From Candidatus Omnitrophota bacterium (GTDB taxonomy: Bacteria; Omnitrophota; Gorgyraeia; Duberdicusellales; 4484-171): DNA of 64,000 nucleotides. The stretch covers positions 128,001 to 192,000 of the forward strand of contig JAIPGM010000001.1 of the NCBI GenBank assembly GCA_021735655.1. The letters run 5' to 3'. Both the position numbers and the translations under genes were made by a program. The notes under the pieces were generated by a model. It was not told where the DNA came from. It saw nothing but the letters and a program-made list of their open reading frames with translations, and searched no databases. Shown piece by piece: positions 1-51,500 of this stretch (position 1 is the first letter of the stretch; each line of letters begins with the position of its first letter).

Positions 1-2
1 TG

Positions 3-515
3 CTTGAGGTGGGAACCGGTTCAGGCTGGCAAACCGCCATATTAGCTACTTTAAGCTATGGCGGTAGTGTTTATTCAATCGAACAAGACCTCGAAGTAGC
101 TAGGGTTGCTCAAAGTAATATTTCGGCGGCGAGGATTAGCAATATTTTCCTTATTCAAGCTGATGCAATGCAACCAATAGATGTATTAGCCGGTAAAAAA
201 TTTGAACGAATCATTGTTTCCGGGGCATTACCACAAGGAATACCGGTCATATTGTTAGATTATCTCGACTTGTCAGGAATAATGATTGCTCCGATAAATC
301 ACGGTAACTCTAGTGATAGTTTATGGAGGATTACCAAGGGGTATGACGGAACCATGGCTGCATCTAGAGTAGATAAAAATATGAGATTCCAGCGGATCAA
401 TGTTGCAAGTAGTACCTCAGTAATTCCAGTTAATCAGGCTAAGAAATTACAAGATTTATCTATTGAGCAAGCTACAGAGCTTGGTGTTCTGTTGGCTGAT
501 AGGAAAGCTCGAGCT
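3..515 (+). CDS. pcm: Module 0 (5' truncated): C-terminal part of protein-L-isoaspartate O-methyltransferase.
   Basis: LEVGTGSGWQTAILA is a SAM-binding motif I identical in style to the PCMT VLEIGTGSGYQAA. The spacing of the downstream motifs fits the PCMT fold. Confidence 0.55.
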
Positions 516-3500
516 CCGCTTGATAATGGAAAATCTTTATCGAGACGTAGCTTTGGTTTTATGGTGACCGCTTTGGGAGTGGGGTCATTTTTGACTGTTT
601 GTTCTAAGTCCTCTGATTTGAAACCGGAAGGCAATCTCATTGGGACTGGACTCACAGTAGGATTAACTTTCGCTCCTGGATTAGGAAGAAATATTGGGGC
701 ATATGAGGAGACAGTATGGACTGATCAGGATGTTGAATTTTTATGCCAAGAAGCGAAATTGATCAGAAAATTATGGAATGTTCCTTTTGTTTTATTCTCT
801 GTTTATACTCCTCCGATTGCCGGTAGCAATTACGCTCAAAGTTATCGATGGATTAAGCAGATGCATGAAGCTGGAGTTCGTCTTTTGCCACATATCTCAA
901 ACTATGATGGTCGCTATCTTCCTTCACCAATCGATATTAATGCTTGGGGTATTTCTGGTAGGGAAAAGAACCTATACAAAGATTTTATTAGGGGTTTGTA
1001 TCATGAGTTTAGCTTACGCAATGAAGAGGGTATTTTTTCTGAAACTATTGTTGGTTGGAATGTTTTTAACGAATATGATTATTTAGCTGTAAATAATCCT
1101 AAATGGTTTGCCAGAACGGGCGAGATTGAGGGATTATTGCAGGGTCTGGATGAAGCTGGGATAGTTGATAATCAAGAAAGAACAAGGGTAATACACGGGC
1201 ATGTTATCGATAATATCCTTTTAGCTACAGAGGAAACAACTCGAGGCATTATTGGAGTCTATCAAGACCTAGGTCTTGATCCTAAGCCGATATATACAGT
1301 TTGGGCTGGATTGCCGACAACTGAACAGGTTGCTAAAGTTCCTTCTTTGACTGGTTGGTCATTTAATCGTTATGATAAACCAGGCCTGTTAGAATCTTTA
1401 GAAAATGCTGCTCAGATAGTTGGTGGTAAAGAAATAAATATCCATGAGATCGGGGAGAGTTCTCATGATGGAGAGGATGTTCAAGCGATAGAGCTGGCTA
1501 GAACATTAAATGAGATAGTTGGGGCAAGAGCAAAATTTCCGAATTTGCGTCACTTTATGTTTATGAGCGCTAACGATAATCACTGGAAACCGGAGCTAGA
1601 AAGCACAACAGCAGGATACCGAAGATTTGATAGACAAGGAACTCCTTTCTATGGTCAACATTGGGGATTGTTTGCGACAATATTTGATGATGATGGCAAT
1701 GCCATAGCAGTTAGGCCGAAGAAAGCTGTCGGTGCTTTAAGTGTAGAAATTAGTAAGCTGGCTAATGCAAATAAAGCTGGTCAGCCACTTGATAATGGCC
1801 GGGATAGCTCAGCATTAGGCTCAATTACTACTCGGATTAATGTTTCAGCCAATAACCATTCAGTACAATTACAGGGACATCAACATTTAGTGGTCATTGC
1901 TCCTTTCGAAGATTTAAATCAACAGGACAGAGCTACTTTAGATGAACTTCTTGAAACCAAACTACCAATTGGTGACTATGTATTTATCGGCGAAGGAACT
2001 TTTGGTCTGTTAATGGTTGCTAAGATGGCCCTGTTAAAAAATAGCGATATCCGCGATAGTCAGCTAGCCGAACATTTAGGAAATGTCATTGAACTGGCTA
2101 GCTTGATGAATCAAGGGCTTAGCTCAACCGGCTTAAACTTAGGTGAGCCTATAGCCGAGCATCTTAATCGAGTGGTTGAATATTTTCCTTTAACTAATAA
2201 TCAGCGGCTAATAGCCCTTATTCGTAATTTAGTGATAATGCATTATGGGGAACCAGTAATGTTTTTTACTCAGTTTGCTCAAGATCCCGGTCGCTTCCGA
2301 GGAGTTTATCTATCAACCCTTGCAACCAGTCCGGAGATCATCAACCAGATGGAAATACAATATCAGAGGCAAGTACCGCTTAATAACGGAAAAGATACCG
2401 CAAAATATGTTTCAACTAAAGCAGTAATCGTACTTGGTGTATCTGGTTCAGGAAAAACTACCTTTATTGATAATTTGCTTGATGATCGGCACGACCGTTT
2501 TATTTTCCCGCGACTTACTACTACCCGAAAACCACGCAGTGGAGAAACTGCTGATCGTTATCGAGTTTTTGTTAGCCAAGAATTATTTGATTCAAAAGAT
2601 CGGGCCGATCAAATGTTAATGGTAAGAAGGGGCCGTCATGGCGGCTATGCTTATGGGTTAGATAGAGGTAATTTGGATAGGTGCTGCGCCACCGGTAAAG
2701 CATTACTTTTTGATACAACTTCAATCGCTGGGGTAGAGCGAATAAGAGAAATTTTTCCTCAGGCTGAGGTAATCACGGTTATACCTAAATCATTCGATAG
2801 GCTCAAAATTTTAAGCGATGAGCAAATTAAACGTATTCTTGAGTCGCGAATGAAGACAAGACGCATGAGTAGGGTTGATACTGAAAAACGCCTTCAGGAG
2901 GCTGTAAATGAGCTTAAAAGATTTCCTGAGCTTAAACCAGAAGTGGTTGTTGTGAATGATTCAATTGATGACTTAGATGAAAATATGACTAGATTTAATC
3001 AGGCAGCCGTGGAGTTAGTTTCTAAAAATCAGCCGTTAGATAACGGAGTCGATGAAGCGCATTGGCGACACAATCTTGACTTAAAAGGTTTTACTGAATT
3101 TTCTGATGAATATATTGATTTTCTTAAGAGAGTTGATGATCGAGAGGCTAATGATGCCTTTTGGCAACCGATCGAAAGATTTAATCAAAGATTAAAAAGC
3201 AATAAAGCTTTAGCTAGAAAACTTTTAGATTTATCGCAGATAATGCTTGATCAGGAAGTTTCAGCTGCTGAGGCTTTAATTGAGGCCTTAGCGCAAGTTG
3301 ATAATCGTAATGATTCAGAAGTTGCCTTTGAACAGGTAATTGAACTAGCGGCAGTTTTCTTAAGAAGAAATTTTGACCCGAGGGCTTCGCTCATGCATGG
3401 AGTAGTGGCTATAGCCAGTGCGGCTAAATCAGCAACTGATTTAGAAAGTTGTTTGGCTCTTGCCTTGAACATAGCCGAAGATGCTTCTTGGGATTATCCA

Positions 3501-6500
3501 CAAATAAATTTTGCAATCCAGTTTGATATTCCTTTGATTGCTTTAGAAACTAATGATCCAGAGGTTTTAGCTACTCAGTTAGAGTTTTTAGTCAGCCGTC
3601 AAGGATATTCGCAAGCTCGAGCTTATGCCCGGACCCATTGGATGTATAATTTTAGAAGAAAAAATAGTTTTCGCACTACTGATTGTTACGAAGTTGGCCC
3701 AGATGGTCCAAATTGGAAAAAAGGTTATGTTCGCAGAGGATTAGTAGAATTAATTGCTTATAAAAGATTTATTAAAGCTATAGCTAGAGCACAAGAACAA
3801 GGATTAGGCATTGAATCTCGTATAGCTACTAAAGAAAAACAAGTTTATCGTGGTCTGGTTAGGGCTGAAACTCACAGTGATTCAGGCACCTATTATACTT
3901 GGGAGCAAGATTTAATAGTAGCCGTTTGCCCAGTATTTTTAAAAGAGACAGTAGTTTCTAAAACTGATCTGACCGGTCAATTTTTCCCCGGCTTATTAAG
4001 AGTCGAAAATGATCAAGATATTAGCTTATTAGATTGGCATGTTCAGCGTGTTGTTGGTCAATTCCAAAGTTGGGTTACACATAGGCATAGAAATTTTGAT
4101 CAATGGCCACGTTGTCGACGCGATAATTTATTGCTTGAAGCTTACTTACAGCACCAGATTTATGATACCTATAAAAAATTTGCCAGTATTTGGGCTCGGG
4201 CTTATCAAGAAGCATTCATTCCGCAAAAATATCCTAAGGGGAGTCAAAATGATAATCCAGTATATTTAGCTGCAGTTGAAGCAATTGCTTGGTTAGATCA
4301 GGTTGGTGGAGTTGCCAACGAGCAACGTTTGGCCAAGCTGGATGAGCTAGACGATAAACATCAATTAGGGAGATATCGAATATTACTCCAGAAAGCTTTG
4401 CTTGAACCTCAGACTACAGGAGTCTCGCAAGTAACTCAAAAAGTTATCGGAGAGGAAGGTATTTCTGGCAAACCTTTAGATAACGGGAGAGTAAATAAAG
4501 AAGAATTAGCGGTTACAGCAGTTAAAAGAGGGAACACCTCACCGTGGCTGGCGGGTCCCCTCTCTGCTGTAGCCCCTATATATATAGGTAAACAATCGCT
4601 ACCTTTGGATAATGGTAAGTCAATTCAAGAACAATTCATTGAAGATGTAATTGTTTTTTGGAAAGTTTGGGATAAACAATATCCTAGAGATATTGAATCT
4701 AGCATTTGCGTACTCGAAGGCGTAAAAGCTTTGAAAGCCAAAGGTTATATAGTCTATTCTGGCTCAGAGCATCAATTGAATATGGCAATTGCTGGTTTAT
4801 GGAGAAATGTTTCTGAAGATGATAAGTTTGCAATAAAAGAAGCTGTACGTTTATTGGCTGAAAATGTTAGACAACATGCTGACGATAGCGGAAGATTGAT
4901 AGCCTTTTTTGATCGTGAAGATGATGTGCTTTATTTAGCTATGGTTGATGTTGGTCCGGGATTTTTCCGTGATGATGAAGGAAGACCGGTTATTCGGAGA
5001 AAAGATGATCGGTTTGAACAACGTCCGGATTCTACCGGCAGAGGGGTTGGTTTAAAGTGGGTTTCAGATCAGGTAGATGATTTACAAATCCATACGGGTG
5101 GGCATGTTAGCCGACAGCCTAAACCAACAATTGAGTCCGATTCAAGGATAGAAGATCTTAAAGGAACTTTTGTTTTTACGAAAATAAATTTAGCCAGTCA
5201 AGCCAGGGAGCCTTTAGATAATGGTTATGGAGTTTATCAAGGCAGGAGACTATATCTAGCTGCTGATCCGGTTCTAAGTGGAGTTAAAAGTATTCGGCGC
5301 GTGAATTTATCAGGTCTAACCACCAAGAGACAAAAACACACTTTATTCACTAGACGAAAAATTCTCGATTTAGTGAGTGTCCATGCTTTAGCGGCGGCCC
5401 ATGGTTATTCTTGGTTAAATGATATAAATAATAGTTATGCTAAAAACCAAGCTGATGGTGAGGTTACTTATTGGTTTGAGGTTTATTATGCTATGCTTTC
5501 CTGGTTAAAGGGAGAAATTTATAATGCTGAAGGAACTCGCGATGAGGCACCTAGTCTTTATGTCGGCCAACACGTTGGGGCTGGATTTCAAAGTGATTTT
5601 CCAGAAAGAGAAGAAGCGAATGTAGCTATCGGAATTGATCCTTTAGAGGTAACTAACGGAGTAGTTTCAGCAAAATTTCTTGGTAGTACTGCTCCGGCAG
5701 TATACGCACCACGTGGTGGGATTATGAAAATAACCGATTTAGCTTATCTTTGGGCTTTATCGGTTGGTCCGGCCGCCGGAAATTGCGATTTAAATTTAAA
5801 CTACAGCGTTAGAAAAAATATGACTAATCTAGCAGCTAGTTTAGGTAAGAAAACAAGTCAGCTCAGAGGGGTAATGTTATTCAGAGAAAGGCATTCACGG
5901 GTTCCTTTGTTGCAATTGGTTGAAAGCGGAATGCAGATAGATGAAGGTGATTCAGAACTTAGAGAATTCTTAAATGAGGCCAAACGAATCGAGGATAAAG
6001 AAAAACAATGTCAGAAGCCAAGCCTGCAAGATTTTGATAGTTTGAAGCAGACTTACAAAGCTTTTGATAGCAAGGTTAAGGCAACTGGGGTTTATCAAAG
6101 CGGGAACCTTACCTTTATTGCTGACGGGAACCTTATGCCAGCTTTAGTGGCTTTAAAGAGAGGCTCGGCAGATTTTATTTTTGACTCAGGGGGAACTTCC
6201 GAAGGAATTATGGCTGCGGCTAATGTAAGGGCAATTGGTGGAAAAATGAGCGCCCGGATTGTGCCTTATCAGGCAATGGCTGAAGGAAAGCTTCAGGCAA
6301 ACTTAGTTAAAGATAAAGATAAATTTTTAGAAAATGAACTAGCTGAGCTAGCGAGATATGGTTTTTATCCTAAAACTTCAAGAAGAAAATTGCAGCGAGG
6401 GCAATATCGTCTTAATCATGTTTTTGATGCTACAGATTTAGTCAGTGCTGAAGAAGCAGTTTTCTTGGCAGCTCACATTAAAGATAGTCCTTGGGACAGC

Positions 6501-12500: not shown

Positions 12501-15500
12501 CTTAGCCTTGAGGGCCACGGTCCAGAGATAGATTTTGTACTTGAAGTTGATCGGGCAAAGTATCATCGTAACAATCAAGGGCAATATGGTAATTTAGATG
12601 AGGGAATTTATCTTGGTGAATCCAAGACATTTAATCGACAATTTAACTTAGATTTGGTTACCGAACATACAATTGATGATAAACAAAGCAAATATCGTTT
12701 AGTGGCCGCAAGGTTAAATAAGCTTCCCGATCCAGTTTTTAACGGCCGCATGAAGGGTATTGTTTTTGCTATGGGGGGAAGCTCGGTTACGGCAGCGGGA
12801 GTTCTAGAGTTTAGGTTAAGACAAAGAGAAGTGGATGAGGGATTAGAAACTTTGAGCTTAGTTGAATATGTAGCTTACATCCCGGATACTATTGATGCTG
12901 ACGAAGAGATAACTTTAAGTGTTAAGGAGGAAATTTATATTATTAAATGGGTAAGAGAGTTAGTTGAGCGGGGAGTAATTGAAGAAAATGAGGTTACCCG
13001 CGTTGAGCGTGTATTTATGGAAATAGCTTCAACTAGCAGCCGTTATGTATTACAAAGTATAGTTTGTGCAAAGTTAAGAGAAAAAACCGGGGAAGGTGAT
13101 ACTTCTTCAGCCAAGCGTCAGTCAGAACAAATTTGGCAAGAAATTATAGCTGAGCTAGAGGCTGAAGCTTTTCCAAATCGAAAACCACTTGATAACGGCC
13201 GCGATGGTCAAGCTGATTTAGCTCGTCAACAGTTAGCTGAAAGTTTGAGAGGGCGCTTGACCGGATTGCTAGATTCTGGTCTTAATCCGGAAAATAGCCT
13301 ACTTGTAACTCATGTTGGTCGACCGAATAAGGCTGGCACGCTTAGGGGTTTGGGTTTACGAGTTTACGAGATGGTTATTCAAGGAGTCAATAAACTTTAT
13401 TATGACCGACGGACTGTAAGAACCATCCCTTTATTTTCTAATAGTTTAGATTGTCCTTATCCTGGTGGTTATCATTCCCAGGGTGGAATGCTTACACCGG
13501 AGGCTAGGCAGGATATTGTTAGCCGGGGAGATGTTTTTATTCTAAGCGGAGGTGAGCTTGAAATATGCTTGCAGATGACTTTTAGCGAATTAATCGATGC
13601 TTTAAATCAAGCTGGAAGAACTACGGTGATATTTGTTCCGCTTGAAGCAACTAGTAGATTTATAAATTTAGAGTCGGCAACCGGCTATGCTGATTATTTA
13701 AAAAGCCGAGCGATAAGCTATGAAGAGTATGATTTTACTAAAAACGAGGTAACTCTAGCTCAACCGGCTACGCCACAGGTATTATTAGTTTGGACTAAGA
13801 CCGCTCAGGAAACTCTTTATTGGTTAGATTTCATAGCTAGGCATCAAAGACTTGTTGCTGAGAAACTTATTGAATCTTTGGGCTCAACTGAGGCAAATGT
13901 ACGTAAAGATGCCGCCGCTAGAATAATTACTATTGCTAAATTAATTGGTCACAACCAAGAAGATAATATATTTGGTCGTCATCCTTTAGATTGGCTTTAT
14001 GGTCATGATGACCATCGCCAGACTACGCCGCAAGAACGCAGGCTTTTATCGGAAGTTTCTTGGTTTCCTTCTGATGCTGTTCATCGAGATGAGGAGCAAG
14101 TACTTTTAACCAATCGCCGAAGAGTAAAAAGCAGAGTAACTGAAGTAAGAAAATCTTTAAGAAATAGGATTTTGTTTGACGTTAAGGCAAAATTGGAATT
14201 ATTAAAACAGCGTTTAGCTGATTCTGAAATTCAGGCTGCAGTAGATTTGGTAAGCTTTGGCTTTGATTCAAGTTTACCGGATCAAGGATCACGCAAGATA
14301 GCTGTTCTTAGAAAATTAGAGAGAAATCTCCAAGAGCTAACTACCCAGATAGAAAGGGCTAAAGCTTCTGGTAGTATTGGAGTGATAATTGTGCCTTTAA
14401 TTGATGAGGCTTTAAGTAGTCTACGGCGGCACGTAAATACGATTAGACATTGGTCGGATTATAAAAAAGGAAGCTATGTGCTTAGGCAGTTAGTTGATTG
14501 GATGGTTCGAAAGCATTTTGAGCCGCAGCATGCTCAATATCGGCAGATAAAATCAGCTAAAGTTTTGGGACGAGTCGATAACGGAGATGAAAAATTTTGG
14601 CAACTTCCGATTTGGCCGTTGGCTGATAACGGTGAGGTTGATTTAGGCTTAACTGGCTGGATGCTTACTTCGCGACAACGGGCTCCGCCAGAATATTTTC
14701 AAAGAAGAAAAGTTTCCCTAGCCGAATTAGCTGGTTTAAAACCAATCCAACTTACCTTATTTAATCTTGATGATTTTACTGGTTCTGGGCAACCCTTAGA
14801 TAATGGCCGAGTGCCTCTCGATAATGGTAAACCTTTATTAGAAAATAGAGATAAACCTAAAGAAACAGGCAGCCACCTTAGAGTAATGCTGGGTTTTCTA
14901 AGTCCGATCAGAGATGAAACCAAAATAGATGAACCCTTGAGTATTTCCGTGTTAGCTGGAGTATTAAGAGATGAGTTTAAGGGCACGGTAGACGTTGCCA
15001 CGGTCCACCCTCTTGTTGAAAAGGGAGGCCTTGAAGGGGTAAAGGAAAGGATAAGAAAAGAACAGCCGGACATCTTAGGATTATCTTTGTTTTTTGGTAG
15101 TTTAGATTATTTAAGAGAATTAATGGCTTATATACGTACTTTGCCAGAAGAAGTTAGGCCTTTAGTGATACTTGGCAATGTGTTGGCTAAATATAATTTA
15201 GGATTGATTTTAAAGGAATTTCCAGAAGTTGGAATTTGTACTGGAGAAGGAGAAAATACTATACGAGATTTTGTGCGTTATTACCGGGGGGAGATGGGTC
15301 TTTTGCAGATTACCAATTTTGCCTATATACATCAAGGGGTACCGAGAGTAAATTTACCTCAACAACGCACTGATTTGTCTGATATTGGAATGCCTCAGCG
15401 GGATATTTTTTCTCACGTCATCAGAACCGGCGGGGTCGTATTTTTAGAAACAAGCCGTTCTTGTTCGCATAATTGTGCAATGTGTAGTCGTAAGACTTAT

Positions 15501-18500: not shown

Positions 18501-21500
18501 GTTAGTCAGCTACATGAAGCCTATCAGCGTGATCCGCTTTGGCAGATGCTTTCAACTGTGCCAGCCGAGGAGATTATAGAACAAATGCGGCAGCTTTTTG
18601 TCACAGTCCCTCAGGGCGTTGATCGTTGGTTATCTGGTCTTCATGCGGTCCATCCGATTGCTAGCAGTTTTGCCGCTGAACTTTTACAGGATTCGCGCGT
18701 GCGTTATTGGCTAAGAAGATGGCATAGTGGTGATTCAGTTAATGAGCCATATCCGGAGTTATTGATGCCGGAATTAAGTCAAAAACAAAATTCACCTAAA
18801 TCAATTCCTTTGGATAACGGCCGAGTGCCTCTTGATAATGGTAAACCGTTCATGCAAAAGTTTAAACCTTCAGAAACTCTAGGCTATTCAGTGATTAACG
18901 GTCCTAGACATAGAGTGATGATTATTAATGTTTTGCCGCAAGATAAACAAGCTTCTTTAGAAACTCAAACTCAGAGCATAATTTCACAAGTAGATTCAGC
19001 CTTAGCTAGAGAGGGTTTTAATAATAGTGATGTGGTTAAACAGGATATGTTTTTACGTGATCCGAGCCAAAGACCCGAGGTTAAAGAAATGCTAGGTAAT
19101 TATTATGGAAGGGCGCCTCCGGCAACCAGTTTTATTCATCAGCCGCCGATAACCGGTGAGCTAGCTGCTACTGAATTGATTGTCATTAAGGGGGAGGGGG
19201 TCCAAGTCTACCGAGTAAATAAATATGCAACCTTAATTAATGCTGACGGACTTTGGATGCTTTATGTGGCTGGAATTGAACCGGATGCTAATTTAACTGA
19301 TACCTATCAGCAGGCCTATAATACTTTTTTAAAGTTACAGACTGTTTTAGAAGAAGTTAGGCTTGGCGCGGTAAGCTTTAAATTTGAAGATGTAATTAGA
19401 ACCTGGCTTTTTGAACGTGAGATAGTTGGTTTTGATGATCAAGAAAAAACTCAAGAGAGATATCAAAAGCTTAATCAAGCCCGACGCGTTTTATTTGATA
19501 CGGCTGATTCTGGATCAGGGGTTATTTTTGGCCGTCGTCTGCATTGTCCATCTTCTTGGCTTCTTTCCTGGCGAACGAGGATTGCTTTTTGGTTTTTAAA
19601 GTTTTCTTTTACTCATCGAATAAAGAAATTCGAAAAAATATTATTCAAATTAGCCCGAGTCAGGCCTCCGGCTTCAACCGGAATCGGTGCTTTGCCGGAA
19701 TTTCAAGCCCAAGGAATAAACGTTGCCATTGGTCCGGCTTTTGTTTTTGAAGCTTTAGCTTTGTTCGCTGAAAGTAATCGAGGCGATGTTTTAATTCAGT
19801 TTATTGAAAACCCCGAACAAACTCCGGCTCATGCTTATTCCAAAAAAGTATTACCCAAGGGAGAAAAGAAAAAGAAAAAAGCTTCCCCGGCTTTTAGCCG
19901 TGGTATGGCTGTATTTATGGATTACATTTGGATAATCATTTCTGGAACAGCTTCAGTTAAAGGTGAAAAGGTAGTCTCTGTTGGTGATGTAAGAGGTCAA
20001 GCTGAGACCACGATTGATAATTTAAGATTAGTAGTTGGTCAGGCTGGAGCCCAGTTAAAAGATATACCGCAATTAAGAGTGTATATCAAGAATTGGCAGG
20101 ATTATCAGACTGTAAGGTCGGTAGTTGAAAAGCATTTTCCCGATACTCCGGCCCTATATCTTTTGGCTGATGTCTGTCGGCCAGAGTGGTTAGTTGAAAT
20201 TGAAGCCATGGCTTTTATTCCTCGAGAAGAAGGGGTTTCTAAGCCTTTAGACAATGGTAAAAATAGAATTCGGCAAGGTGAGATCTGGTCTCCTCACCGT
20301 GGCTGGCGGGATCCAGCTCCCTTGCCGGATTATATATCTGTTCCGCTCGACAATGGCAAAAGAACTCTAGATTCATTGCCAACCAGACTCAGGGTTTTCT
20401 TAAGACTTAATAATATTGATCCAGCTAAAACTTATTTATTTGCCATGAGCGGCGGTGATTGTGCCGGGCCAAATTCAGCTTATTATGGTGCAGTTAGAGA
20501 GGCTGATAAATATGGTTATAAAGTATTAGGGGTGTTGAATGGTTTTGAAGGGTTAGGGGCTAATCCGGATTTATTCGTTGATCAACTTATTTATATTACT
20601 TCCGAAGGCATTGAGCGATTAAAAGGAATGCCGAGTATTCATGTTGGGTCTTCTCGGGCTAAATTTAAGGATAAACGCGAAAATATTTTAGTTAATTGCG
20701 CTGCTTTTGCCGGAGTAATTTTTGTTGTTGGTGATGACCATTCTAAGCAAACCGGCGAGCTAGCTGAAAGCGGCATAGCAACTATAGCTATTCCCAAAAC
20801 TATTGATTATGACTTTTTGGCGGAATCTTTAGGGTCACATAGTGCTATTTCTGAGGCCCGGCGACTTTACCTACGGGCTCATCGCATGGCCCAAGAGGAT
20901 CATTTTGTTCAAGTTATTGAATTTATGGGACGTGATGCTGGCTGGCTAACCTTTTTGGCAGCTCAGCAGGTTGCTGGAGCTAACTTTATTCTTCTCCCGG
21001 AAAAAAGCGCTGGCTTTAAGGATGTTTTAATTAAAGCTTTGTCAGTTATTTTAGAGGAAGGTTATTTGACTATCGCTATGGCTGAAGGTTATAGCTTTAG
21101 AGATTTCCAGGAAAAAGATCGTATCTTTGGAGGGCCGCTGTTTTATAAATTCTTAGATATTATACCGTTTCTTAAGGCTAAATTTTATTCTAAAGGCCAA
21201 ACCGATGTACATGGTAACCCCAAATTATCAGGAATAGCTGAGTACTTGTCTTTAGCTATTCGTTATTTGCCACGCTTGGCCAAGCATGATGCCGATATAA
21301 ATAGGCTTTATCAAGCGATTAAACTTAAGTACCCACATTATTTTGGTACTGACTTGCGTTATAAGGCTAAGGGCGAGGTAATGCAGAATGTTCGTTTATC
21401 GATTTTAGGCTATATTTTAAGAGGCCTTCCTTCAGATGATTACGATACTAGATTGGGAGAGGCTTATGGAAGAGCCGCAGTTAGGTTACTTCAGGCCGGA

Positions 21501-33500: not shown

Positions 33501-36500
33501 GAAATAGCTTTGTTTGACGAAGCCAGTATCGGAAATTTTGAACGCCTTGAGCAGGATGGTTACTTTGATGGACTTGATTTATTTTTTGCCGAAGACCCTC
33601 AGATAGTCGGTCTAATACCATTGATCAGGGCTTTTTATCCAGAGGTTCATCTTGCTTGGCGTTGTCATATTGACACCTCTACTCCTAATCGTCAAATTGC
33701 CGAATTTGTTAGCGATATGGTTAGCGGCCGTCTTGATCCAGTACGGGATAAATTACTCTATGACTATCTTTTAAAGCGTTTAATGAGAGAGGGTATGATT
33801 GGAGCAGCAGTTGATTTTGAACAAATGATGCAGGCTAATTCCCTTTCGGTTAATCTTGCCCAAGTTGCGACTAGAAGATTGTTGGCCGATATAGCTATTT
33901 ATCACACCGAAGAATTTGCTTTAGGATTACATCTCCAAACTAAAGGCGTGCCAACCTTTATTATGCCTCCGGCAATTAACCCTTTTAGTTATAAAAATAT
34001 TCCCCTAGCTGATAATTTTATTCGGGCAACTATGGTTAAATATGGTTTAGATCCCAATAAATTTACGGTTGTTGAAATATCACGTTTCGATCCTTTTAAG
34101 GGGCCGCTGGAGGCCATTCAGGCTTTTGTGCGTTTATTTTTGGATAATCCGGGATTGCAGAATGATTTACAATTTGTTTATGCCGGAAATATGGCTGACG
34201 ATAACCCTAAGGGAAAACGCGATTTTGAAAAGATCGATGCCTATTCTCGCTATCTTAGAAAGAAATTTCCTAAACTTAGGAAAGCCTTGTTTTTGCTCGG
34301 TCTTGGGAATAAACCCGGGACAGTAGCCTTAAATTGGGCCCAGAGACGCAGCTTGCGTGTTGGTGGTCAGTTTGCTCGGCCATTTTCTCGGAAAGAGATA
34401 GGTCGACTCAACGGTGTTGAGATAAATGCTCTTGAGGTTAATGCTTTACAGCAACAACTTGAGATGGAAAAAAGAGACGGTAGGTTAGTTATTTCTTTAC
34501 CGCGTAAAATAGCAATACAGCCTTCATCAAAAGAAGGTTTTGGCTTAGTGGCGGCTGAGGCTACCGGAAAAGGTACTCTGGTTATCGCTTCTTTGATCGG
34601 TGGCCTTAAAGCGCAATTAAAGGATTTGCTTGCGCAAGCTTCTTGGTTGGGCATTAACTATACGCCGGAGGAAATTAGTCAATCTTTAGAGGTGTATGAC
34701 TCAATGGATTCTGATCAGCATAGAGGTGTTGTTTTCGATGTGGCTTATTTGGAAAGAATTAATTTATATCAACGGCTTAATCAACGAGAATTCGTTTTGG
34801 GTTTAGCTACCTCTCTGCGGGTGGCTTACGAACTGGCTCATAAAAATCCAGATGTCTATCGAGAGCTCGGTTTAGCTGCACGTTGCCAGACTTTAGATAA
34901 GTTTATTACTCTAGCTAATGTTGAGAACCGCTTAGCCGCCGCTTCCTTGATTGTTGATAATCAGCAGCCCTTGGATAATGGTAAGCCAGAAGTTCCGATG
35001 CCTTCTTCTTATTGGATCGATCATAGCCTTCTTCATGAAATTGATAATGTTTGGGCTAACTTGGATTGGATTAATCCCGGGCCAAGTTTAAGCATAGCTC
35101 GCCAGATTGAGAAAAATTTTAAGCCAGCACAAGAGCCAGGTTTTTTAAGAGTTAGCATAGATGCCTTTGGTCCGCTTAACGGATTTAAAAATCAAGTATT
35201 AGCTGAACATGAGCAGTATTTTGATTCCGAGGTTTATAAAGATTATCGAGCTGGCATAATTCATGCTATTGATAATCTTTGGCAACACGGCGGAAAGTAC
35301 GGTGCCTTATTTTTGATGGCTCAGCTTAGAGGACGAACCGTACGCTTTACTTATTGTTTGCTAGATCGCGGTGATGGTTTTATTAATGACGATTACAACC
35401 ATGTTCGTTTAGAAGAAGCCGTTCAGGCACATAGAACATTTAAACGAGCCGGCAAGAATGGTATGGGCCTTTATTATATGGCGATAAAGCCGGATTATTT
35501 TTCAATCACCGCGGTTAATTGCTACCGGGCTGTTGCCACAACTCAAGCTCACTATTGGGAAACTGGCTACACTAAAGAATGGCCGTTTTGCCCGCAACAA
35601 ACTCCGGTTAACAAGGGGGTGCGGGTGATTTCGGTAAAGGATGTAGCTTTAGGCCTTTTGCCATTTTCGAATATGCAGCCGTTAGATAATGGCCGTCGAA
35701 CTGATGAAGAACGCCTGGATTTTATCGGATTTTTAGTTGAGTCATATTTAGAGGCTTTATTTACTTTCCGGAGGTTAAGAGCAAATAACAGCGAAGTAGC
35801 CGAGATGTATCTGCCAGCAATTTCCGAAACTGCCGTTAGAAAGAAACGAGCCAAATGGGTAGTTACAGCTGTTGAGGTTGCCCGTGAGGCATTTCAGGTT
35901 ATGGCTCGAGCTGATTTTCGACATTCATCCGGCTTAACCATTCGTTCAATCTTTGATTCAATTTTGGCTTCTGGCGGTCGCAACCAAGCAGCTAATGATC
36001 TAGGAGTCGATCGCGCTAGCCTTACTCGCTGGATGCATAGCTTACCTAATGATTTATTAGGTGGGTTAGATCCAGAATTAGCAGTCTTCAAACAAAGAAT
36101 CCTTGATTTATTTGATGAAAACAATACTCGACCCCTAGACAACGGTAAAGAAAATATAGATTTATTAGCGGTTACAGCAGTTAAAAGAGAGGACACCTCA
36201 CCGTGGCTGGCGGGCCCTCTCTCTGCTGTAGCCCCTATATATATAGGTAAACAGCAGGGGCCGCTAGATAACGGCCGAGCGCCTTTGGATAATGGCCAGC
36301 CAGCTAACTTTTGGAAAGTTTTGCATTCTGGTATATACGTACTTCCGATATATTACACTCGACTTTTCGATACAGCTAAAGACGCAGGAATTGGAAAATA
36401 TACTTATGTAGTGCCGTTTGTTCGTGATCATGTATTGTCTTTAGGCCATCAAGCGATACTTTTCTTACCGTTTTCTTTGCAGTTACCTTGGTCGCAATCT

Positions 36501-45500: not shown

Positions 45501-48500
45501 ATTGAAGCAGCTAAACAAGGAGAGGCTTTTTTAGGTTGTCGAATAAAAAAATCTCAAGCTAATCAAGGGGTGCTTACGCCGGTAGCTCAGCCGGTTAAAA
45601 ATAGTTCTTGGGCTAATCCCTTTTTTGATCAATTCGCTTATGATTTATGGCATGCGCTACTTTTTGATGATCATAACCTTTATGATTATGTTCAGGCTAA
45701 ATGGGATTATACTGTTGGTGAAGAAGGGGCTTTTAACGTGGCCGGATTTTATCTGCTTGATGCTCATTATCTTGGGTTGTTGCGTTCGCGCACCAGCATG
45801 CATAATATACCGGAAAAATTATATATGTGTTCAGCTGGATATGAAATGACTGCTAATATCAACAAATTATTGACTGCGATTAATCGAGTTAGTTTGTGCC
45901 CTCAGGAAAATACCTTGGTGCGTTCAACCGTACGTAACACCTTACAACATGCGATTTCCCAGCGCCTAAGTAAGTGGCGCCTGGCTCGGGCTTTAATATT
46001 AGTCGTTGAATCTAACGGCGAAGTTCTTGCCGGAGACGACAGCACTTATGTTTATATTATGGATTCTGGTCCGGGCATGCCGATTGATGCGGTAATGCAA
46101 GGCGATTGGCGAAGACATAGTACGATGTTTGGTACGGATTTAAAAGGTTTTCGTGAATATAGGGACGTTGAATGGATTCTTGATTCTTGGTCAAGCAAAG
46201 CCGGCGGACCGCAACGTTGGGATGGTCTAAGAGGGGGGCTGGTTGAGGGAGCTTTAGTACCGGACAACATGCCTTTATTTGGTACTTTATTCGGTATGCG
46301 GCTTAAGCATGGCTTAGAATCGAGTAGCAAACCTTTAGACAACGGTAGAGATTCTCGGTCAAAAGGACAAAATCTTGGTAGTTTAGGAACGGCTAATAAG
46401 GCCCCTCCGGTAAAAACTTACAATGTCGAGAGTCCTTTTAATCGGTTTTCGCTGCGCCTTTTAGATTTAATTCTAACCTTATCTTTCTTGCCTCTGATTA
46501 TTCTAGCTAGCCTACCCATAGCTATATTTGTTAAATATCAGATTTTTAAACACAAGACTGGACAGTCAGTTATTTTTAAAGAGCAGAGATTCGGCTATAA
46601 GGGTAAACCGTTTATCATGTATAAATTTCGTACTTATATCGGCGATAAAGATAATCCTAAGGCAGTTTTACTGAGCTTGCGTTGTTTGGGGCTAGATGAG
46701 TTACCGCAGTGGTGGAATATCTTAAAGGGCGATCTTTCAATTTGGGGAGTGCGCCCTAAGTTACAAGATGATCCCAGCTCTGACAGTGATTTCCAAGCAC
46801 ACCTGGATCAGATCAATGATTTACGCAAGCCGGGAATAATTAGTTTAGCTACGGCTGATGTGCACGCTGAGATGGAGCATGTTTCTTTTTCAGCCGAGCA
46901 TCGCGATCGTCAGATCGCCTTTGATCTTTATGAAGCAGAGTATTGGTCATTCTTTTTAGCTTTTAAAATTGTTGTTTTGAATATCTTTGCTCAATTTAAA
47001 GAAGCAGCCAGGATTGTATTCCGAAATAAAATTTTAGTTATTGTTGCCGTGCATATTCCGCAAGCCGAGCAGCCAAAAGCCGGCCCAATTTTAAATATTT
47101 TAGAATACTTAAGCCAAAGATTCCCTTCGAAATATTATAGTGTCTTTGTTGGTTTTCCGGATTCAGGAAATCCCAATTTAAATTTAGATTTAGCTATTCC
47201 TCAAGGCTTAACCATTGGCTTAGGTGAAGGCGATGAATACAACATAGTTAATTCTCAAGGCCTTAAACTTAAATTTAGCTGGCAGTTTGAGGGGCCAGAC
47301 GATTTAAGCCAAAGAACTTTAAAAATTGGACGCCACAAGTTATTAATGCCATTGTGCGCTGAAAGTTCTCTTCCGGTATTTTCCGGAGCTAAGAAAAAAA
47401 TTCCCCATAAGGCTATCTTCATTCCCTTTATTGCTTTTCGTCCATGTATTGTTACCTGTATGAATGATTTAATATTTCTCAATCTTCCGATAATTGGATT
47501 AGATACCGCTAATGGCATATTTTTGTTTGTTCCCGGCTCAACCCAGATTGATATAGTCGGTACAAACAAGCTTCTGGCCGTAGCAATTAATCATTCCGGC
47601 AGGGTGATGGGCAGTTCATTTAAAGATTTGGACCAAGTCGTTCCTTTAGATAATGGACGTCAAACCATTTCCCACTTCCGAAGTGGGGAAGGTCAGAGCC
47701 GGACCGGCCCGACATCCCGTAATTTCCCCCTGGATAACGGCGGCCGGAATAATGAAGCTATCGAAAACAATCGGTTTTCATTCGCTAATCGTCTAGGAAA
47801 AGTTTTAGTTGCTACTGTTATCGGTGGAATTTCTTTAGGGTTATTGTATTTATTCGGCGGCCTTGATTGGTATACAAATATAAAAAATAGTATTCCTTTA
47901 GGGGCAGTGATTTTCTGGCCGGGGGCTTTCCTGGATATGGTTACCGGTGTTTTGATCTGGTTAATTTCCGATATCGTCGGTCAATATCTTAATCAGGGTA
48001 GAAGCATTCGCTATCGGCAAAGTTTTAAAGTTGGTGCTTGGGGAGTATTTCAAGGGTTGGCTACTCACATTTTGTATAATTTAGTTGAACTGCTTCCGGT
48101 TGTGCCTTTACCTTTAGCGCAAGCAATGTTTCGAACTATTTTTACTCTTTTTGGCGGACTGACTATTAACATTTTCTATACCGTGGTTGTAGCCCGGGCT
48201 CGTAAAGCATCTAAGGCTGAAGGTTATAGCGGCCTAAAGGAGCGCCACAAGGCTTATGATGTTATTTTTAGTAAGTTTATCGTCGCCCCAATCAAAACTT
48301 ATTTTATAGTTAATCTATTACCTCCGGCAACGCGGGTTATTAGCGAGCAGGCTTGGGAATACTTAATGAAAGTTTTTGATGCTTATTTGATGAACCGTAA
48401 AGATTCACTTTTTTCTAGTTATATTCTAAATTTATTATCTAGAAAAAAACCTTTAGATAACGGCCGCTCCGGGCAGTCGGATGATCAAATAACTTTGGTT

Positions 48501-51500
48501 TCTGATAATCTGGTTGACTCATTTAGAAATGTTAGACAAAGGCTGGTAGTAACTGTTAGGCGCGCACAGATGTCTAGATTGGATTTTAAGCCGGGGATAG
48601 TGTCACTTCAGAATATGAGCCCAAAGGTAGATTATTTCTGCCTTTCTTCAATATCTGAACGCCAAGAAGATATCCAAGCCTATAGGCAAGTTCCTTTAGT
48701 ACAGGATGGTGCTAGTTTTGGAGAAAGTTACAGTGAAAAATATCTTATTGCTCAGGAACCGGATACCTTAGTTTTAGTTGAGGGTGATGAAGGGTTGATT
48801 GCCAGTTTTGATTATTCGCTTTGTGGTTGTCTAGTCATTCGGGCTAGAAATCTTTTTGGCATGGCCCACTTAAGTCCATTTATAGATTTTTCGGATGAAG
48901 AGATGGAAATTGAAAATGATCGGATTTATTATAAATATTTATCAGTTTTAGATTATTTCAAATTACAGGGATATAAAGATGTTCAAATTTTTCTCAGTTT
49001 GAATGAGCTGCTTCAGGGATTTAAAACTTTAAAAGCTAGGCTTTGGTCGGCTGGTGATAGCGATGCGACTAATCGTCAGAGAGTGGTAGATCTTCTTGGG
49101 ATTGAGGCTAGGCAACGCGGCATAGCTGTTGTTGATCGCCGCCTTCGACAAAAGTCTGAGGTTCTAGATGTCCTGGGTTTTCCGAGAAAAATGATTAGCC
49201 GTCAATGGCTTAATCGCGGCACAAAACCCGAAAGTTTTGAAATAATATTTATTGAGACTAGAGATGAGTTGCCAGTAGCCATAAACTCAGAGACTCAACA
49301 ACCCGAGATTGAATACTTTCAATTCGCTTGGCCTGTTGTGATACCTCTCGATAATGGCCGCCGGAAACTACCAAATGATGACTGGATTTGGGTTAATGGA
49401 GAGAGTTTGCAATTTGTTGGCCGGGACGGTTTATTGATAACAGGAATGGAGGGCCGGGGTAAAAGTTTTTTGGCCAGAAAAATATACGATAGCGATGATA
49501 GATGGAAAGTCGTATCCTGCGGAGCTACTCATGTATGTATAAGGAATGAATTAGCAGAAAGAGCGCTTTTAGGCAGACGTTTATCCGAAAATAATCTTTT
49601 ATATTCCCGGCTGTCAGGAACAATCCCGGTAGAACTATCGTTAGATGTAGTTGTTAGGTTGAACTGGGTTATGGCCTTAGACGATCTATACCGAGAAATT
49701 TTAGGGGGATTGTTGGCCGATGCCGGGCAAAGAGAGTCTTTGGGCCTCAAAATTATAGATATGAGCGATCTAGACGTAACTCGGCAATGGCCGAAAGTGT
49801 TGAAGTTCATCAATGCGTCTATTGTGAAACCAGAGACTTACGATAAAGGAAATAGTTTATTTCAAGTCCCTCTTGATAATGGTAGACGAGCTCAAGTTGA
49901 ACAGGAACGGGAATTTTTGATCCAGACAATCATAAATGTTTTTAGCCAAGGTGAAGGATTATGCCTGGAGCCGGCGCAGATAGAGGCAGCTATTGCTGTA
50001 GATACATCATTTGATGAATACAGGATAGCTAGAAACTTGCCGATAGTTATTGGCCTAAAGGGTAATATTTATGAAAATTGTCCTTTGGCTAGCAAGCCTC
50101 TTCTTCTTGTGTTTACCGGCAGAGGAAGCATAACTAAACCAGAGCTTATCTTCAATGCCTACACCCAGCAAGGTTTAGTCAGAGAAGCAAGCCGTTTAAG
50201 TCGTTCGATGGAAACTAAAAATGCAATTTGGGAGATACCTTATCATGGCAAGAAGACGGCTTTCATATTGGAAGATAAAAATAACTGGATTGCTTTGGCG
50301 GCAGTTTATGGTCCTGAAGATATTTACCAACAAGGACTATTGATCTGTAAGGGTGGAGATAGGATAACCAGGTTAGGTACAGAAATTTCTCAAGCCGCTG
50401 GTGAGGCAGATGAGGAAGCTATATTTTCTGATTATTCCCGGGCCTTAGTGGTTGCTCGTCTTTTAGGATTTTCTATCCTTGATGGTCCAGATATGATGCG
50501 CCGGGTTAACCGGCGGATGAGCGCTATGATCGCGGCAGCAAAAGAGACTGTGGCCGATATCAATGAGTTTGCTAAGGCATACCCTGGTTATGAGGCTGTT
50601 GATACACATCACATACTTAAACCTACTACCAGTAATCCGGTGGAAGAGGGAGGTTTCCCGCACACTGAATGGATGGTGACTAGTCGAGGGGTTGTTCAGG
50701 GGACGGTTACTGCTTTGCGTTGGCTTAGACAGGTTCTTGACGTTGGAGAGAATAGGTACCCTGAGGAAGTGGTAAGATTTGTTAAAAATTTGAATATATT
50801 TGGAAGTCCGATGAGCTATATTGTCCAAGGCTTTGGTGATGTTGGCAGCGGCATCACTAAGCTTTTTTTGACTATTTTTAAGATTTTTGGGTTTCAGGCC
50901 AGGGGTTTTAATAACCGTTACTTTGCAATTTATCGCCGCGAAGGATTACCTAAACCATTTTTAGTTGAGGCGCGGGAGATCGTTGAAGTTTCTCCTGATG
51001 CTTTAGATCTAGGGAGATTACTGGCAATGAAGAGTTTTGATGACCAATTACAGGGGGCGGTGGTTTGGATAGCTAATCCAATTAACCCGAAAACTAAAGA
51101 GCCAGTATTTGGTCCTGCTGATGTGGACAGAGTAAATCAAGCTCTTGCTGAAAGAGGTGTTACTGCTATTTGGGGTGATCAGACAGTAGTAAATGAACTA
51201 ATTTATCAAAAGGCAACCGTGCTTTTTCTGGCTGCAACCGCTAATGTTATTAGTGAACTTTCTCAGGTTGAAAGATTGCAGGTTAAGATTATTTCTGAGG
51301 GAGCTAATAATGCAGTTAAACCTGAGTTAAGAGAGCCTTTAAGAAAAGCTAATGTATTTTATATTCCTGGTGAGCTTCTTAACGGCGGGGGCATATATGC
51401 TTCTAAGGAAGATATTCGGCATAACCATACCGATGGATCAGAATTAATAAGGCAACATCGGCAATACTATTATATACATGTAACTGATGAGATCGACACA

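Follow-up and report, generated by a model that had tools for sequence, protein, structure and literature searches.

A conserved in-frame stem-loop at module junctions of giant Omnitrophota open reading frames, probably acting in the mRNA

A stem-loop lies in frame between enzyme modules of the giant open reading frame (ORF) in the 64-kb window, that is, the whole stretch of DNA that was analysed. The stem-loop is real, previously undescribed, and conserved as nucleic acid rather than protein: its loop recurs across loci, its stem covaries, it keeps to one strand while its reading frame changes, and it sits at module junctions. Judging from the copies compared, we would put the probability at about 0.55 that the copy at positions 36164-36253 (copy B) represents an undescribed family of strand-specific stem-loops, carried in frame within giant multi-enzyme ORFs of Omnitrophota/PVC bacteria and serving as a cis-acting junction mark. 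An in-frame hairpin at the joints of enzyme modules offers a first concrete landmark for how giant transcripts or proteins may divide.

The giant ORF occupies positions 1-63038 of the forward strand; its frame is already open at base 1, the left edge of the window having cut off the start. It comprises at least 21,009 codons within the 64 kb, with no in-frame stop from base 1 (the first full codon is 3-5) to 63035. About 59 modules can be distinguished, with PLDNG[K/R] linkers between them, and Pfam assigns one or two divergent metabolic enzymes to a module, including TreT_GT1/GT1, GH77, phosphorylase, FBPase_glpX, PFK and TPR domains. Compared with the published description, this is the domain content of an archaeovorin-type giant gene, with which the ORF shares GT1/TreT-type glycosyltransferase, TPR, FBPase and other sugar-metabolism domains; its hairpin-bearing relatives are likewise Omnitrophota MAGs, and the closest relative of the window, L012, is binned and labelled as Planctomycetia. 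The window itself contains no marker gene. A plasmid or phage origin of the window was dropped as a candidate, megablast giving 0 hits. According to the primary literature, Omnitrophota giant genes reach 85,804 codons, and the cutting of their transcripts or proteins is reported as unknown. The paper on these genes states that the cleavage points are unknown and describes neither a linker motif nor an RNA element (West-Roberts et al., bioRxiv 10.1101/2023.11.21.568195). The window supplies two sequence-defined landmarks that make the subdivision of giant genes testable, namely a six-residue PLDNG[K/R] linker (SLDNGG[K/R] in a relative) that parts units of whole-protein size, and a conserved putative mRNA stem-loop at some of the junctions.

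There are 58 exact PLDNG motifs in the giant ORF. None of the 17 Pfam hits that could be placed is interrupted by a linker, in agreement with an earlier note on this DNA that took PLDNG to mark module junctions, and module 18, the sole module compared in this way, corresponds to whole stand-alone proteins elsewhere. The motif differs by lineage, being PLDNG[K/R] in the window, SLDNGG[K/R] in L012 and possibly SSSFSL in L018 and L036. As at viral polyprotein junctions, a short recurrent motif thus stands between complete functional proteins of one ORF; unlike in viral polyproteins, the motif is lineage-variable, the window showed no protease domain, and cleavage here is putative. We regard the linkers as probable boundary or cleavage sites of a polyprotein. 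Literature searches with PLDNG and with the loop sequence gave no relevant result, and no homologues of modules 34-37, which adjoin copy B, were found by protein search.

Copy B is a 90-nt unit on the forward strand, consisting of a 5′ arm, the 19-nt apical sequence CCTCACCGTGGCTGGCGGG (36196-36214, translated T-S-P-W-L-A-G), a 3′ arm, and the palindrome CCTATATATATAGG with TAAACA after it. A PLDNG linker precedes it at 36132-36146 and a double linker (DL3, PLDNG-R-A-PLDNG) follows at 36261-36296, so that the interval 36147-36296 is made up of mini-module 35 (KENIDLLAVTAVKREDTSPWLAGPLSAVAPIYIGKQQG-PLDNG) and module 36 (R-A-PLDNG). Copy A lies on the same strand at 4505-4594 (core 4537-4555), with linkers at 4473-4487 and 4602-4616. 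That the two are copies, at the level of DNA, of a single discrete element, as the earlier note had held, is borne out by blastn (118 nt at 90%, E=5e-37). The shared unit is exactly 90 nt long and identical at 86 of 90 positions, and the likeness falls sharply at both edges. The palindrome reported earlier is also present, with 15-nt arms that are 87% complementary and spaced 42 nt apart, and RNA folding of the element gave -36.5 and -38.2 kcal/mol (z -2.4 to -4.3). Direct reading of the folds shows that, of the four differences between A and B, one is a compensatory change of a G:C to an A:U pair. The encoded 43-aa peptides are 79% identical, and both nonsynonymous differences fall in the stem, one being a member of the compensated pair and the other adding a base pair. 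The unit, as read from the sequence, is open in one frame only; copies A and B repeat directly and in frame at a distance of 31,659 nt (10,553 codons). The 20-nt dot plot that had been proposed for enumerating every DNA-level repeat of the ORF returned only the A/B element (26 of the 27 repeated 20-mers) and one pair of single linkers, at 49869 and 57207. The further suggestion that element and linker move as one unit did not stand: the 90-nt repeat ends 17 nt from the upstream and 7 nt from the downstream linker, and by direct count the flanking linkers agree at 12/18 and 10/18 positions, against a mean of 11.7/15 for any pair.

A third hairpin, copy C, had been missed by the earlier note. 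It lies at 20263-20335 on the forward strand (core 20292-20310), with linkers at 20244-20258 and 20343-20357, and carries the same 19-nt apical sequence. Its stem (CGGCAAGG.../...CCTTGCCG) differs from that of A and B, as does its frame (S-P-H-R-G-W-R); it has only the 19-nt core in common with them, yet its hairpin is equally good. Each copy in the window is bracketed by PLDNG linkers, and 3 of the roughly 60 junctions in the giant ORF are occupied, so a hairpin is not required at every junction. The window yielded no Rfam match at gathering score, nor any tRNA or tmRNA; hits to miRNA precursors at permissive E-values were set aside as generic hairpins far under their gathering scores.

Across genome and metagenome collections the exact core occurs at 44 loci. 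Thirty-seven of these lie in ordinary genomes, mostly of high GC, without a comparable long stem around the core, and look like chance matches. The remaining seven lie in giant ORFs (L001, L002, L012, L018, L026, L033 and L036), in all of which a long stem encloses the core on the sense strand, at a GC of 0.33-0.49. These loci come from Omnitrophota or PVC metagenomes, L001, L002 and L018 being Omnitrophota MAGs. Seven unrelated stems surround the common loop, and the orientation is sense in 7/7 of these independent stems. Full-length sequence is common only to A and B, and to L026, L036 and L018; copy C, L001, L012 and L033 share the loop alone. L026 and L036 lie 7.6 kb apart on one contig and have only a unit of ~127 nt in common, at 94%. 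Because copies were retrieved by exact 19-mer match, the invariance of the loop is partly an ascertainment effect. A search for copies with divergent loops, by mismatch matching and with covariance model R1 over 123 kb, yielded the copy at L001:6459 alone, plus three weak, probably spurious hits; this sole copy not retrieved by the exact core reads ACCTACCGTGGCTGGCGGA in its loop.

The stems are conserved in pairing. In a MAFFT alignment made without fitting to the structure, 82.4% of cells were paired, compared with 62.5±2.7% in shuffled alignments (0/500), and the covariation score was 0.522 against 0.199 in shuffles (0/500), with every slid register lower; 11 of the 12 variable stem pairs carry double changes. 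The number of base pairs around the core was a noisy measure relative to shuffles, and the covariation test and folding z-scores were relied on in its place. Among the copies, translation of the core itself runs in each of the three codon phases (TSPWLAG, SPHRGWR and LTVAGG). Copy C is the orthologue of the L012 hairpin, each following a RidA-like module; between them the loop and outer stem are retained, the inner stem has been swapped with its pairing retained, the frame has shifted, and the encoded peptides are unrelated. Since loop and pairing stay constant while stem and frame change, the unit of selection is a nucleic-acid structure. The element is thus selected as nucleic acid and not as peptide, most likely as a structure in the sense mRNA. 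Owing to G·U pairs, the sense fold is 5-12 kcal/mol better than the antisense fold in L001, L002, L018, L026, L033 and L036. Both strands fold about equally well in the three window copies and L012, so the argument for RNA over DNA rests on the other lineages, from which we infer RNA rather than single-stranded DNA as the functional form. The hairpin is a clean case of structure-level selection within translated sequence, in all three frames, and is a candidate new RNA family with which giant genes could be located and divided into segments.

Taken together, the element is probably a cis-acting mRNA stem-loop at module junctions, with a role in processing, 3′-end protection or pausing. Its stem of 17-30 bp is free to vary in sequence provided that pairing persists, and presents an invariant apical region, CCUCA-CCGU-GGCUG-GCGG-G, whose heart ACCGUGGCUGGCGG can form a 4-bp helix with a GGCUG loop on top; an A/U-rich tract follows immediately 3′ of the stem. 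The hairpin is always placed shortly past the end of an enzyme module, and in L012, L018, L002 and the second L001 copy it lies 30-100 aa past the module's last Pfam domain. In the mechanism we propose, the loop could be the docking site of a conserved trans-acting factor, and the hairpin could mark the junctions of the giant transcript, either for processing or 3′-end protection or as a checkpoint at which transcription pauses or terminates. Cleavage at the linkers would cut out the hairpin's arbitrary translation product of 33-43 aa, and a double linker would simply be a pair of such sites enclosing an empty slot of 2 aa. The element occurs within a genome as discrete, near-identical units of ~90-125 nt, which might stem from duplication or gene conversion, and hairpin-bearing junctions are sites where whole modules are gained or lost.

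Variable stems, a conserved apical loop or bulge and a fixed orientation characterize the IRE, boxB, bacterial SECIS and REP-type 3′-end protectors. Our element resembles these loop-recognized RNA hairpins in its variable stem, conserved loop, fixed orientation, A/U-rich flank and position between functional units, but it lies within a continuous ORF with no stop or UGA nearby, its 19-nt loop is unusually long, and it matches no Rfam family at gathering score. A bacterial SECIS has an in-frame UGA just upstream, and the giant ORF is free of in-frame stops. A scan for intrinsic terminators (GC-rich stem, 3-8-nt loop, at least 5 U in 8 nt) gave no call; the hairpin loop is ~19-25 nt, and the window tails UAUAUAUAUA and UUAUAUAU are without a clean U run, the tails being U-richer in L012, L018 and L033. 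REP/RAYT palindromes are extragenic and numerous with conserved stems, whereas the present hairpins are intragenic, number 3 copies in 64 kb and have variable stems. Resemblance of the loop to Chi, RfaH ops or 16S segments is partial and was set aside.

The sharp edges and 96% identity of the A/B units in an otherwise repeat-free ORF could also be expected of a selfish palindromic repeat, RPE- or MITE-like, that was copied into the giant ORF in its sole open frame and has no host function. The single open frame of the A/B unit would suit such a repeat, as would the ~127-nt unit that is likewise all that L026 and L036 share. There is a precedent in Rickettsia, where palindromic elements lie in frame within protein-coding sequence (PMC10969869). 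Similar to RPEs and intragenic MITEs, which are palindromic multi-copy units of ~100-150 nt translated in frame within the host protein, the element is a 90-nt palindromic unit that keeps the host frame open and is present in three copies. However, RPE families conserve their full-length sequence and peptide, whereas here conservation is confined to the pairing and a loop of 14-19 nt, without a family consensus or a conserved peptide; stems of different lineages are unrelated, the peptide frame varies, and placement is limited to giant-ORF junctions. In a MITE the arms of the stem would be conserved as terminal repeats; here it is the arms that vary across copies and the loop that is fixed. 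Reading of the flanks found neither terminal inverted repeats nor a target-site duplication, the ends ATTAGCGG... and ...GGTAAACA not being inverted repeats. The uniform sense orientation also speaks against a selfish repeat, and the loop and pairing that copy C and L012 kept through replacement of the stem point to purifying selection on structure. On balance, a selfish origin without function seems unlikely to us, and an mRNA stem-loop marking the junction is the reading we prefer.

Modules have been gained and lost around the element. Downstream of the orthologous hairpin there is a PFK module in the window and a different module in L012; homologues of the PFK module at L046 and L047 have neither linker nor hairpin. 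Relative to the ~93%-identical L026, L018 has 1,294 specific nt (~430 codons) immediately 5′ of the hairpin, corresponding to a TreT-like module plus junction, and ~140 extra nt immediately 3′, which L026 lacks. In the ~6.6 kb compared between L018 and L026/L036, the only large indels are those adjoining the hairpin. Two further double linkers on the forward strand, DL1 (14793-14828) and DL2 (18807-18842), both PLDNG-R-V-PLDNG, bracket modules 15-16 and form direct repeats whose cores are 30/31 identical. The module shuffling proposed in the earlier note is thus upheld as gain and loss at linkers (window versus L012) and beside the hairpin (L018 versus L026/L036), though not as the copying of an element-linker unit.

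These observations, together with the spacing of A and B as in-frame direct repeats, could be read as signs of a DNA recombination site, an attC-like hairpin of folded single-stranded DNA through which module cassettes would enter or leave in frame, with the double linkers as empty sites or scars. In its fullest form this would be an "integron inside a gene": hairpin and lineage-specific linker would act as a recombination and processing signal, modules would be inserted, deleted and shuffled in frame, and the double linkers would represent cassette sites left empty or scarred. Integron attC sites are indeed imperfect palindromes, conserved in structure over sequence, between exchangeable cassettes, and module indels lie beside the hairpin here. 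However, all the junctions examined between the window and L012 differ, with or without a hairpin, which makes turnover a general property of linkers. In attC sites the conserved parts are the R and L boxes, which lie at the base of the stem, and not the loop; IntI is required and the sites lie between separate genes, none of which was found here: the arms lack the R′′/R′ consensus (RYYYAAC/GTTRRRY) as read from the sequence, and no recombinase or integrase domain is present among the Pfam hits across the 21,009 codons. The plentiful G·U pairs suit RNA more than DNA, and the likeness of DL1 and DL2 is marginal (P≈0.04). We consider the recombination site, in either form, quite improbable. Finally, a short conserved peptide module of ~40 aa, freed between two linkers with the palindrome incidental, would fit the near-identical A/B peptides with PLDNG on either side, but was rejected as scarcely credible, since one DNA core is translated in three frames among the copies, the orthologous copy C and L012 peptides are unrelated, and both nonsynonymous A/B changes lie in the stem, one compensated and one adding a pair.

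As for the double linkers, the strings quoted in the earlier note are present at 14793, 18807 and 36261, and RA alone does separate the two linkers after copy B (36261-36296). The idea that these junctions were copied as DNA finds no support for DL3, where the likeness to the other double linkers (32/42 nt) is close to the null for identical peptides (30.5±2.0, P≈0.31) and peptide constraint suffices; for DL1 versus DL2 it is borderline (37/42 versus 32.8±2.0, P=0.036). Within each double linker the two halves resemble one another no more than random pairs of linkers do, and an origin by tandem duplication was rejected, TRF finding no recent one at these sites. No significant secondary structure was detected in the double linkers or in the short inter-linker modules 8, 10, 31 and 57. 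A small hairpin of another kind is present in module 46.

A single reading frame fills nearly the whole window, open from base 1 to 63038 (21,009 residues), with its start truncated by the window edge within a PCMT methyltransferase domain. It carries 58 exact copies of the linker motif PLDNG, in which the codons vary and the next residue is nearly always K or R. Because the variants PLNNG (three times) and PFDNG (once) also occur (window 2376, ~aa 790, 9700, 13150 and 17700 of the ORF), this tally underestimates the number of junctions; a guanylate-kinase domain begins directly 3' of one PLNNG. Pfam searches of the ORF detected divergent metabolic enzymes, namely PCMT, guanylate kinase, FBPase-glpX, glycogen phosphorylase, radical-SAM/B12, RidA, PFK, TreT/GT1, GH77, sugar transferase, Glu dehydrogenase, PLP decarboxylase and GH100, and all 17 of the 17 placed domain hits are each confined to one inter-linker module. 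The modules are nearly all mutually unlike, the only paralogous pairs being modules 15 and 30 and two hairpin mini-modules. Across 87-94% of its length, module 18 (472 aa) aligns with RidA-family proteins of 400-470 aa that stand alone in ordinary gene neighbourhoods. Since the match is to entire stand-alone proteins, at least this module is, judged by its sequence, a complete protein, and the ORF a polyprotein-like fusion. The protein-L-isoaspartate O-methyltransferase domain cut by the edge occupies window 1-530, and each linker includes Asn-Gly, a classic spontaneous deamidation (isoaspartate) site; the two may be functionally linked, or this may be coincidence. A family-5 extracellular solute-binding protein (SBP_bac_5, E=1e-48) is encoded by a separate gene that begins 41 nt past the giant ORF's stop codon and continues beyond the window edge (63079-64000). 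The domain content of the ORF is like that of the Archaeovorin giant genes of Omnitrophota, whose cleavage points are unknown according to their authors (bioRxiv 10.1101/2023.11.21.568195).

The stretch at 36147-36296 comprises mini-module 35 plus the 2-aa module 36 (PLDNG-R-A-PLDNG). Within it, hairpin copy B (36164-36253) has a discrete 90-nt unit in common with copy A (4505-4594), 86/90 identical (blastn, E=5e-37), and the likeness collapses a few bases beyond either edge. The unit includes an inverted repeat with 15-nt arms and 42-nt spacing, and its fold energy is -36 to -38 kcal/mol (z -2.4 to -4.3). A third copy, C (20263-20335), overlooked in the earlier note, lies between the linkers at 20244 and 20343. 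The sole sequence common to C and A/B is the 19-nt core CCTCACCGTGGCTGGCGGG, which is read as SPHRGWR in C and, in a different frame, as TSPWLAG in A/B; the stem of C is unlike theirs, with equal complementarity (CGGCAAGG.../...CCTTGCCG). The three cores, at 4537, 20292 and 36196, are spaced near-evenly (15,755 and 15,904 nt). This is probably a coincidence, since the next evenly spaced position (~52.0 kb of the window) is without a hairpin copy and two copies in L001, a locus outside the window, are just 1.7 kb apart. Another very short inter-linker module, module 46 (47658-47741, 28 aa), bears a different hairpin of roughly 9-10 bp at about 47668-47692 (TTTCCCACTT-CCG-AAGTGGGGAAGG), and a second small GC hairpin too (GCCGGACCGGC).

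Searching public genome and metagenome collections with the exact 19-mer core yielded 44 loci. Thirty-seven lie in ordinary, mostly high-GC genomes; there the core lacks an enclosing stem of comparable length, and these hits appear to be fortuitous. The other seven (GC 0.33-0.49) are on the sense strand of ORFs filling or dominating the locus, and a long stem encloses the core each time: L001, L002 and L018 in Omnitrophota MAGs, L012 in an assembly labelled Planctomycetia, L026 and L036 on the same 105-kb contig, and L033. The L026/L036 pair repeats the A/B pattern, with two dispersed, near-identical units of ~127 nt amid otherwise unique sequence. A second copy in L001, found by mismatch search, bears the variant ACCTACCGTGGCTGGCGGA, which narrows the invariant heart to ACCGUGGCUGGCGG; the apparent invariance of the loop is inflated by the exact-match searching through which copies were collected. 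A covariance model built here, R1, gave no additional convincing copies in 123 kb of sequence. The 11 copies in total have seven unrelated stems, and their core is read in all three codon phases, which excludes a peptide module.

Applied to a MAFFT alignment made without reference to structure, RNAalifold returns the stem, with compensatory changes in 11/12 variable pairs. Shuffles reach 62.5±2.7% paired cells, below the 82.4% observed (0/500), and a covariation score of 0.199, below the observed 0.522 (0/500); slid registers are all worse than the true one. The differences between A and B include one G:C to A:U double change. Folding z against flank shuffles ranges from -2.2 to -7.0 in all ten exact-core copies, and in six loci G·U pairs favour the sense strand over the antisense by 5-12 kcal/mol; this strand test is neutral for the window copies and L012. 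No match to Rfam families, tRNA or tmRNA was obtained for the element, which also falls outside the standard definition of a terminator. We have very high confidence that the element is a stem-loop, conserved and strand-specific, and that selection acts on it at the nucleic-acid level.

The distance from the last domain of a module to the hairpin downstream is 30-100 aa in other lineages (RidA in L012, TreT+GT1 in L018, GT5+GT1 in L002 and an Rce1-like domain for the second L001 copy), and an A/U-rich tract follows the stem 3' in every lineage. With moderate confidence, we infer that the stem-loop acts in mRNA at module junctions, where a conserved factor would recognise its invariant apical region. 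In a transcript >63 kb, it could serve as a processing or 3'-end-protecting site or, alternatively, as a pause or termination checkpoint. The PLDNG linkers would be cleavage sites, the arbitrary hairpin-encoded peptide being discarded, and a double linker would amount to two such sites enclosing an empty slot; the PLDNG boxes flanking the hairpin fit this idea. Rival explanations are that the element is a selfish, RPE-like repeat carried in frame, or a recombination site of attC type at which cassettes would be exchanged in frame.

L012, the closest relative (57-64% aa), has the module order 9, 12, 18 in common with the window; the intervening modules differ, and the homology blocks stop no more than about 8 aa from a linker. 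The linker that L012 itself uses is SLDNGG[K/R] or SLNNGG[K/R], with 7 in 2,666 aa (L012:1-7998, - strand). The motif ends in Gly-Gly, as in substrates cleaved by C39 double-glycine peptidases; such peptidases have been reported from Archaeovorins in the literature. The L012 hairpin is the ortholog of copy C: loop and outer stem are conserved, a new inner stem still pairs, and both the reading frame and the module that follows downstream have changed. L018 and the L026/L036 contig come from two strains with about 93% DNA identity, and over about 6.6 kb their structural differences lie solely at the hairpin. Relative to L026 131-257, L018 carries an additional 1,294 nt directly 5' of the hairpin (2384-3677; a TreT-like module with junction sequence, about 430 codons) and about 140 nt directly 3' of it (2134-2280), a net difference of 1,419 nt that retains the ORF frame. 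A recurrent SSSFS[L/V] motif at the junctions of these loci may be the linker equivalent of their lineage. The block ends and the indels lend support to the proposal in the earlier note that the polyprotein acquires or shuffles modules. All window/L012 junctions differ, with or without a hairpin, and Pfam detected no recombinase domain in the ORF, which argues against a special role of the hairpin in this turnover and against an attC-like site. A frameshift distributes the PFK-module homologue at L046:2724-3065, on a short contig, over two called genes; this probably reflects a misassembly within a further long ORF.

It had also been proposed that the double linker beside copy B was copied as DNA and that element and linker move as a unit. 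Under a null model with peptides fixed and codons drawn from the motif's own usage, the double linker at 36261-36296 shares 32/42 nt with the other two, where 30.5±2.0 are expected (P≈0.31), which does not bear out copying. The linkers flanking A and B fall outside the 90-nt repeat and match at 12/18 and 10/18 (direct count), no better than the average linker pair, and TRF found no tandem duplication at the double linkers; joint movement is thus unsupported. The proposed self-comparison by 20-mer dot plot returned 27 repeated 20-mers, 26 from A/B and one from a single-linker pair. The double linkers at 14793-14828 and 18807-18842, both PLDNG-RV-PLDNG, agree at 37/42 nt against 32.8±2.0 expected (P=0.036), and their core GGCCGAGTGCCTCTYGATAATGGTAAACC is 30/31 identical. 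As direct repeats separated by 4,014 nt, they bracket the radical-SAM-like modules 15-16 and, at this marginal significance (P≈0.04), are a weak candidate for a duplicated junction, perhaps belonging to an inserted cassette of two modules.
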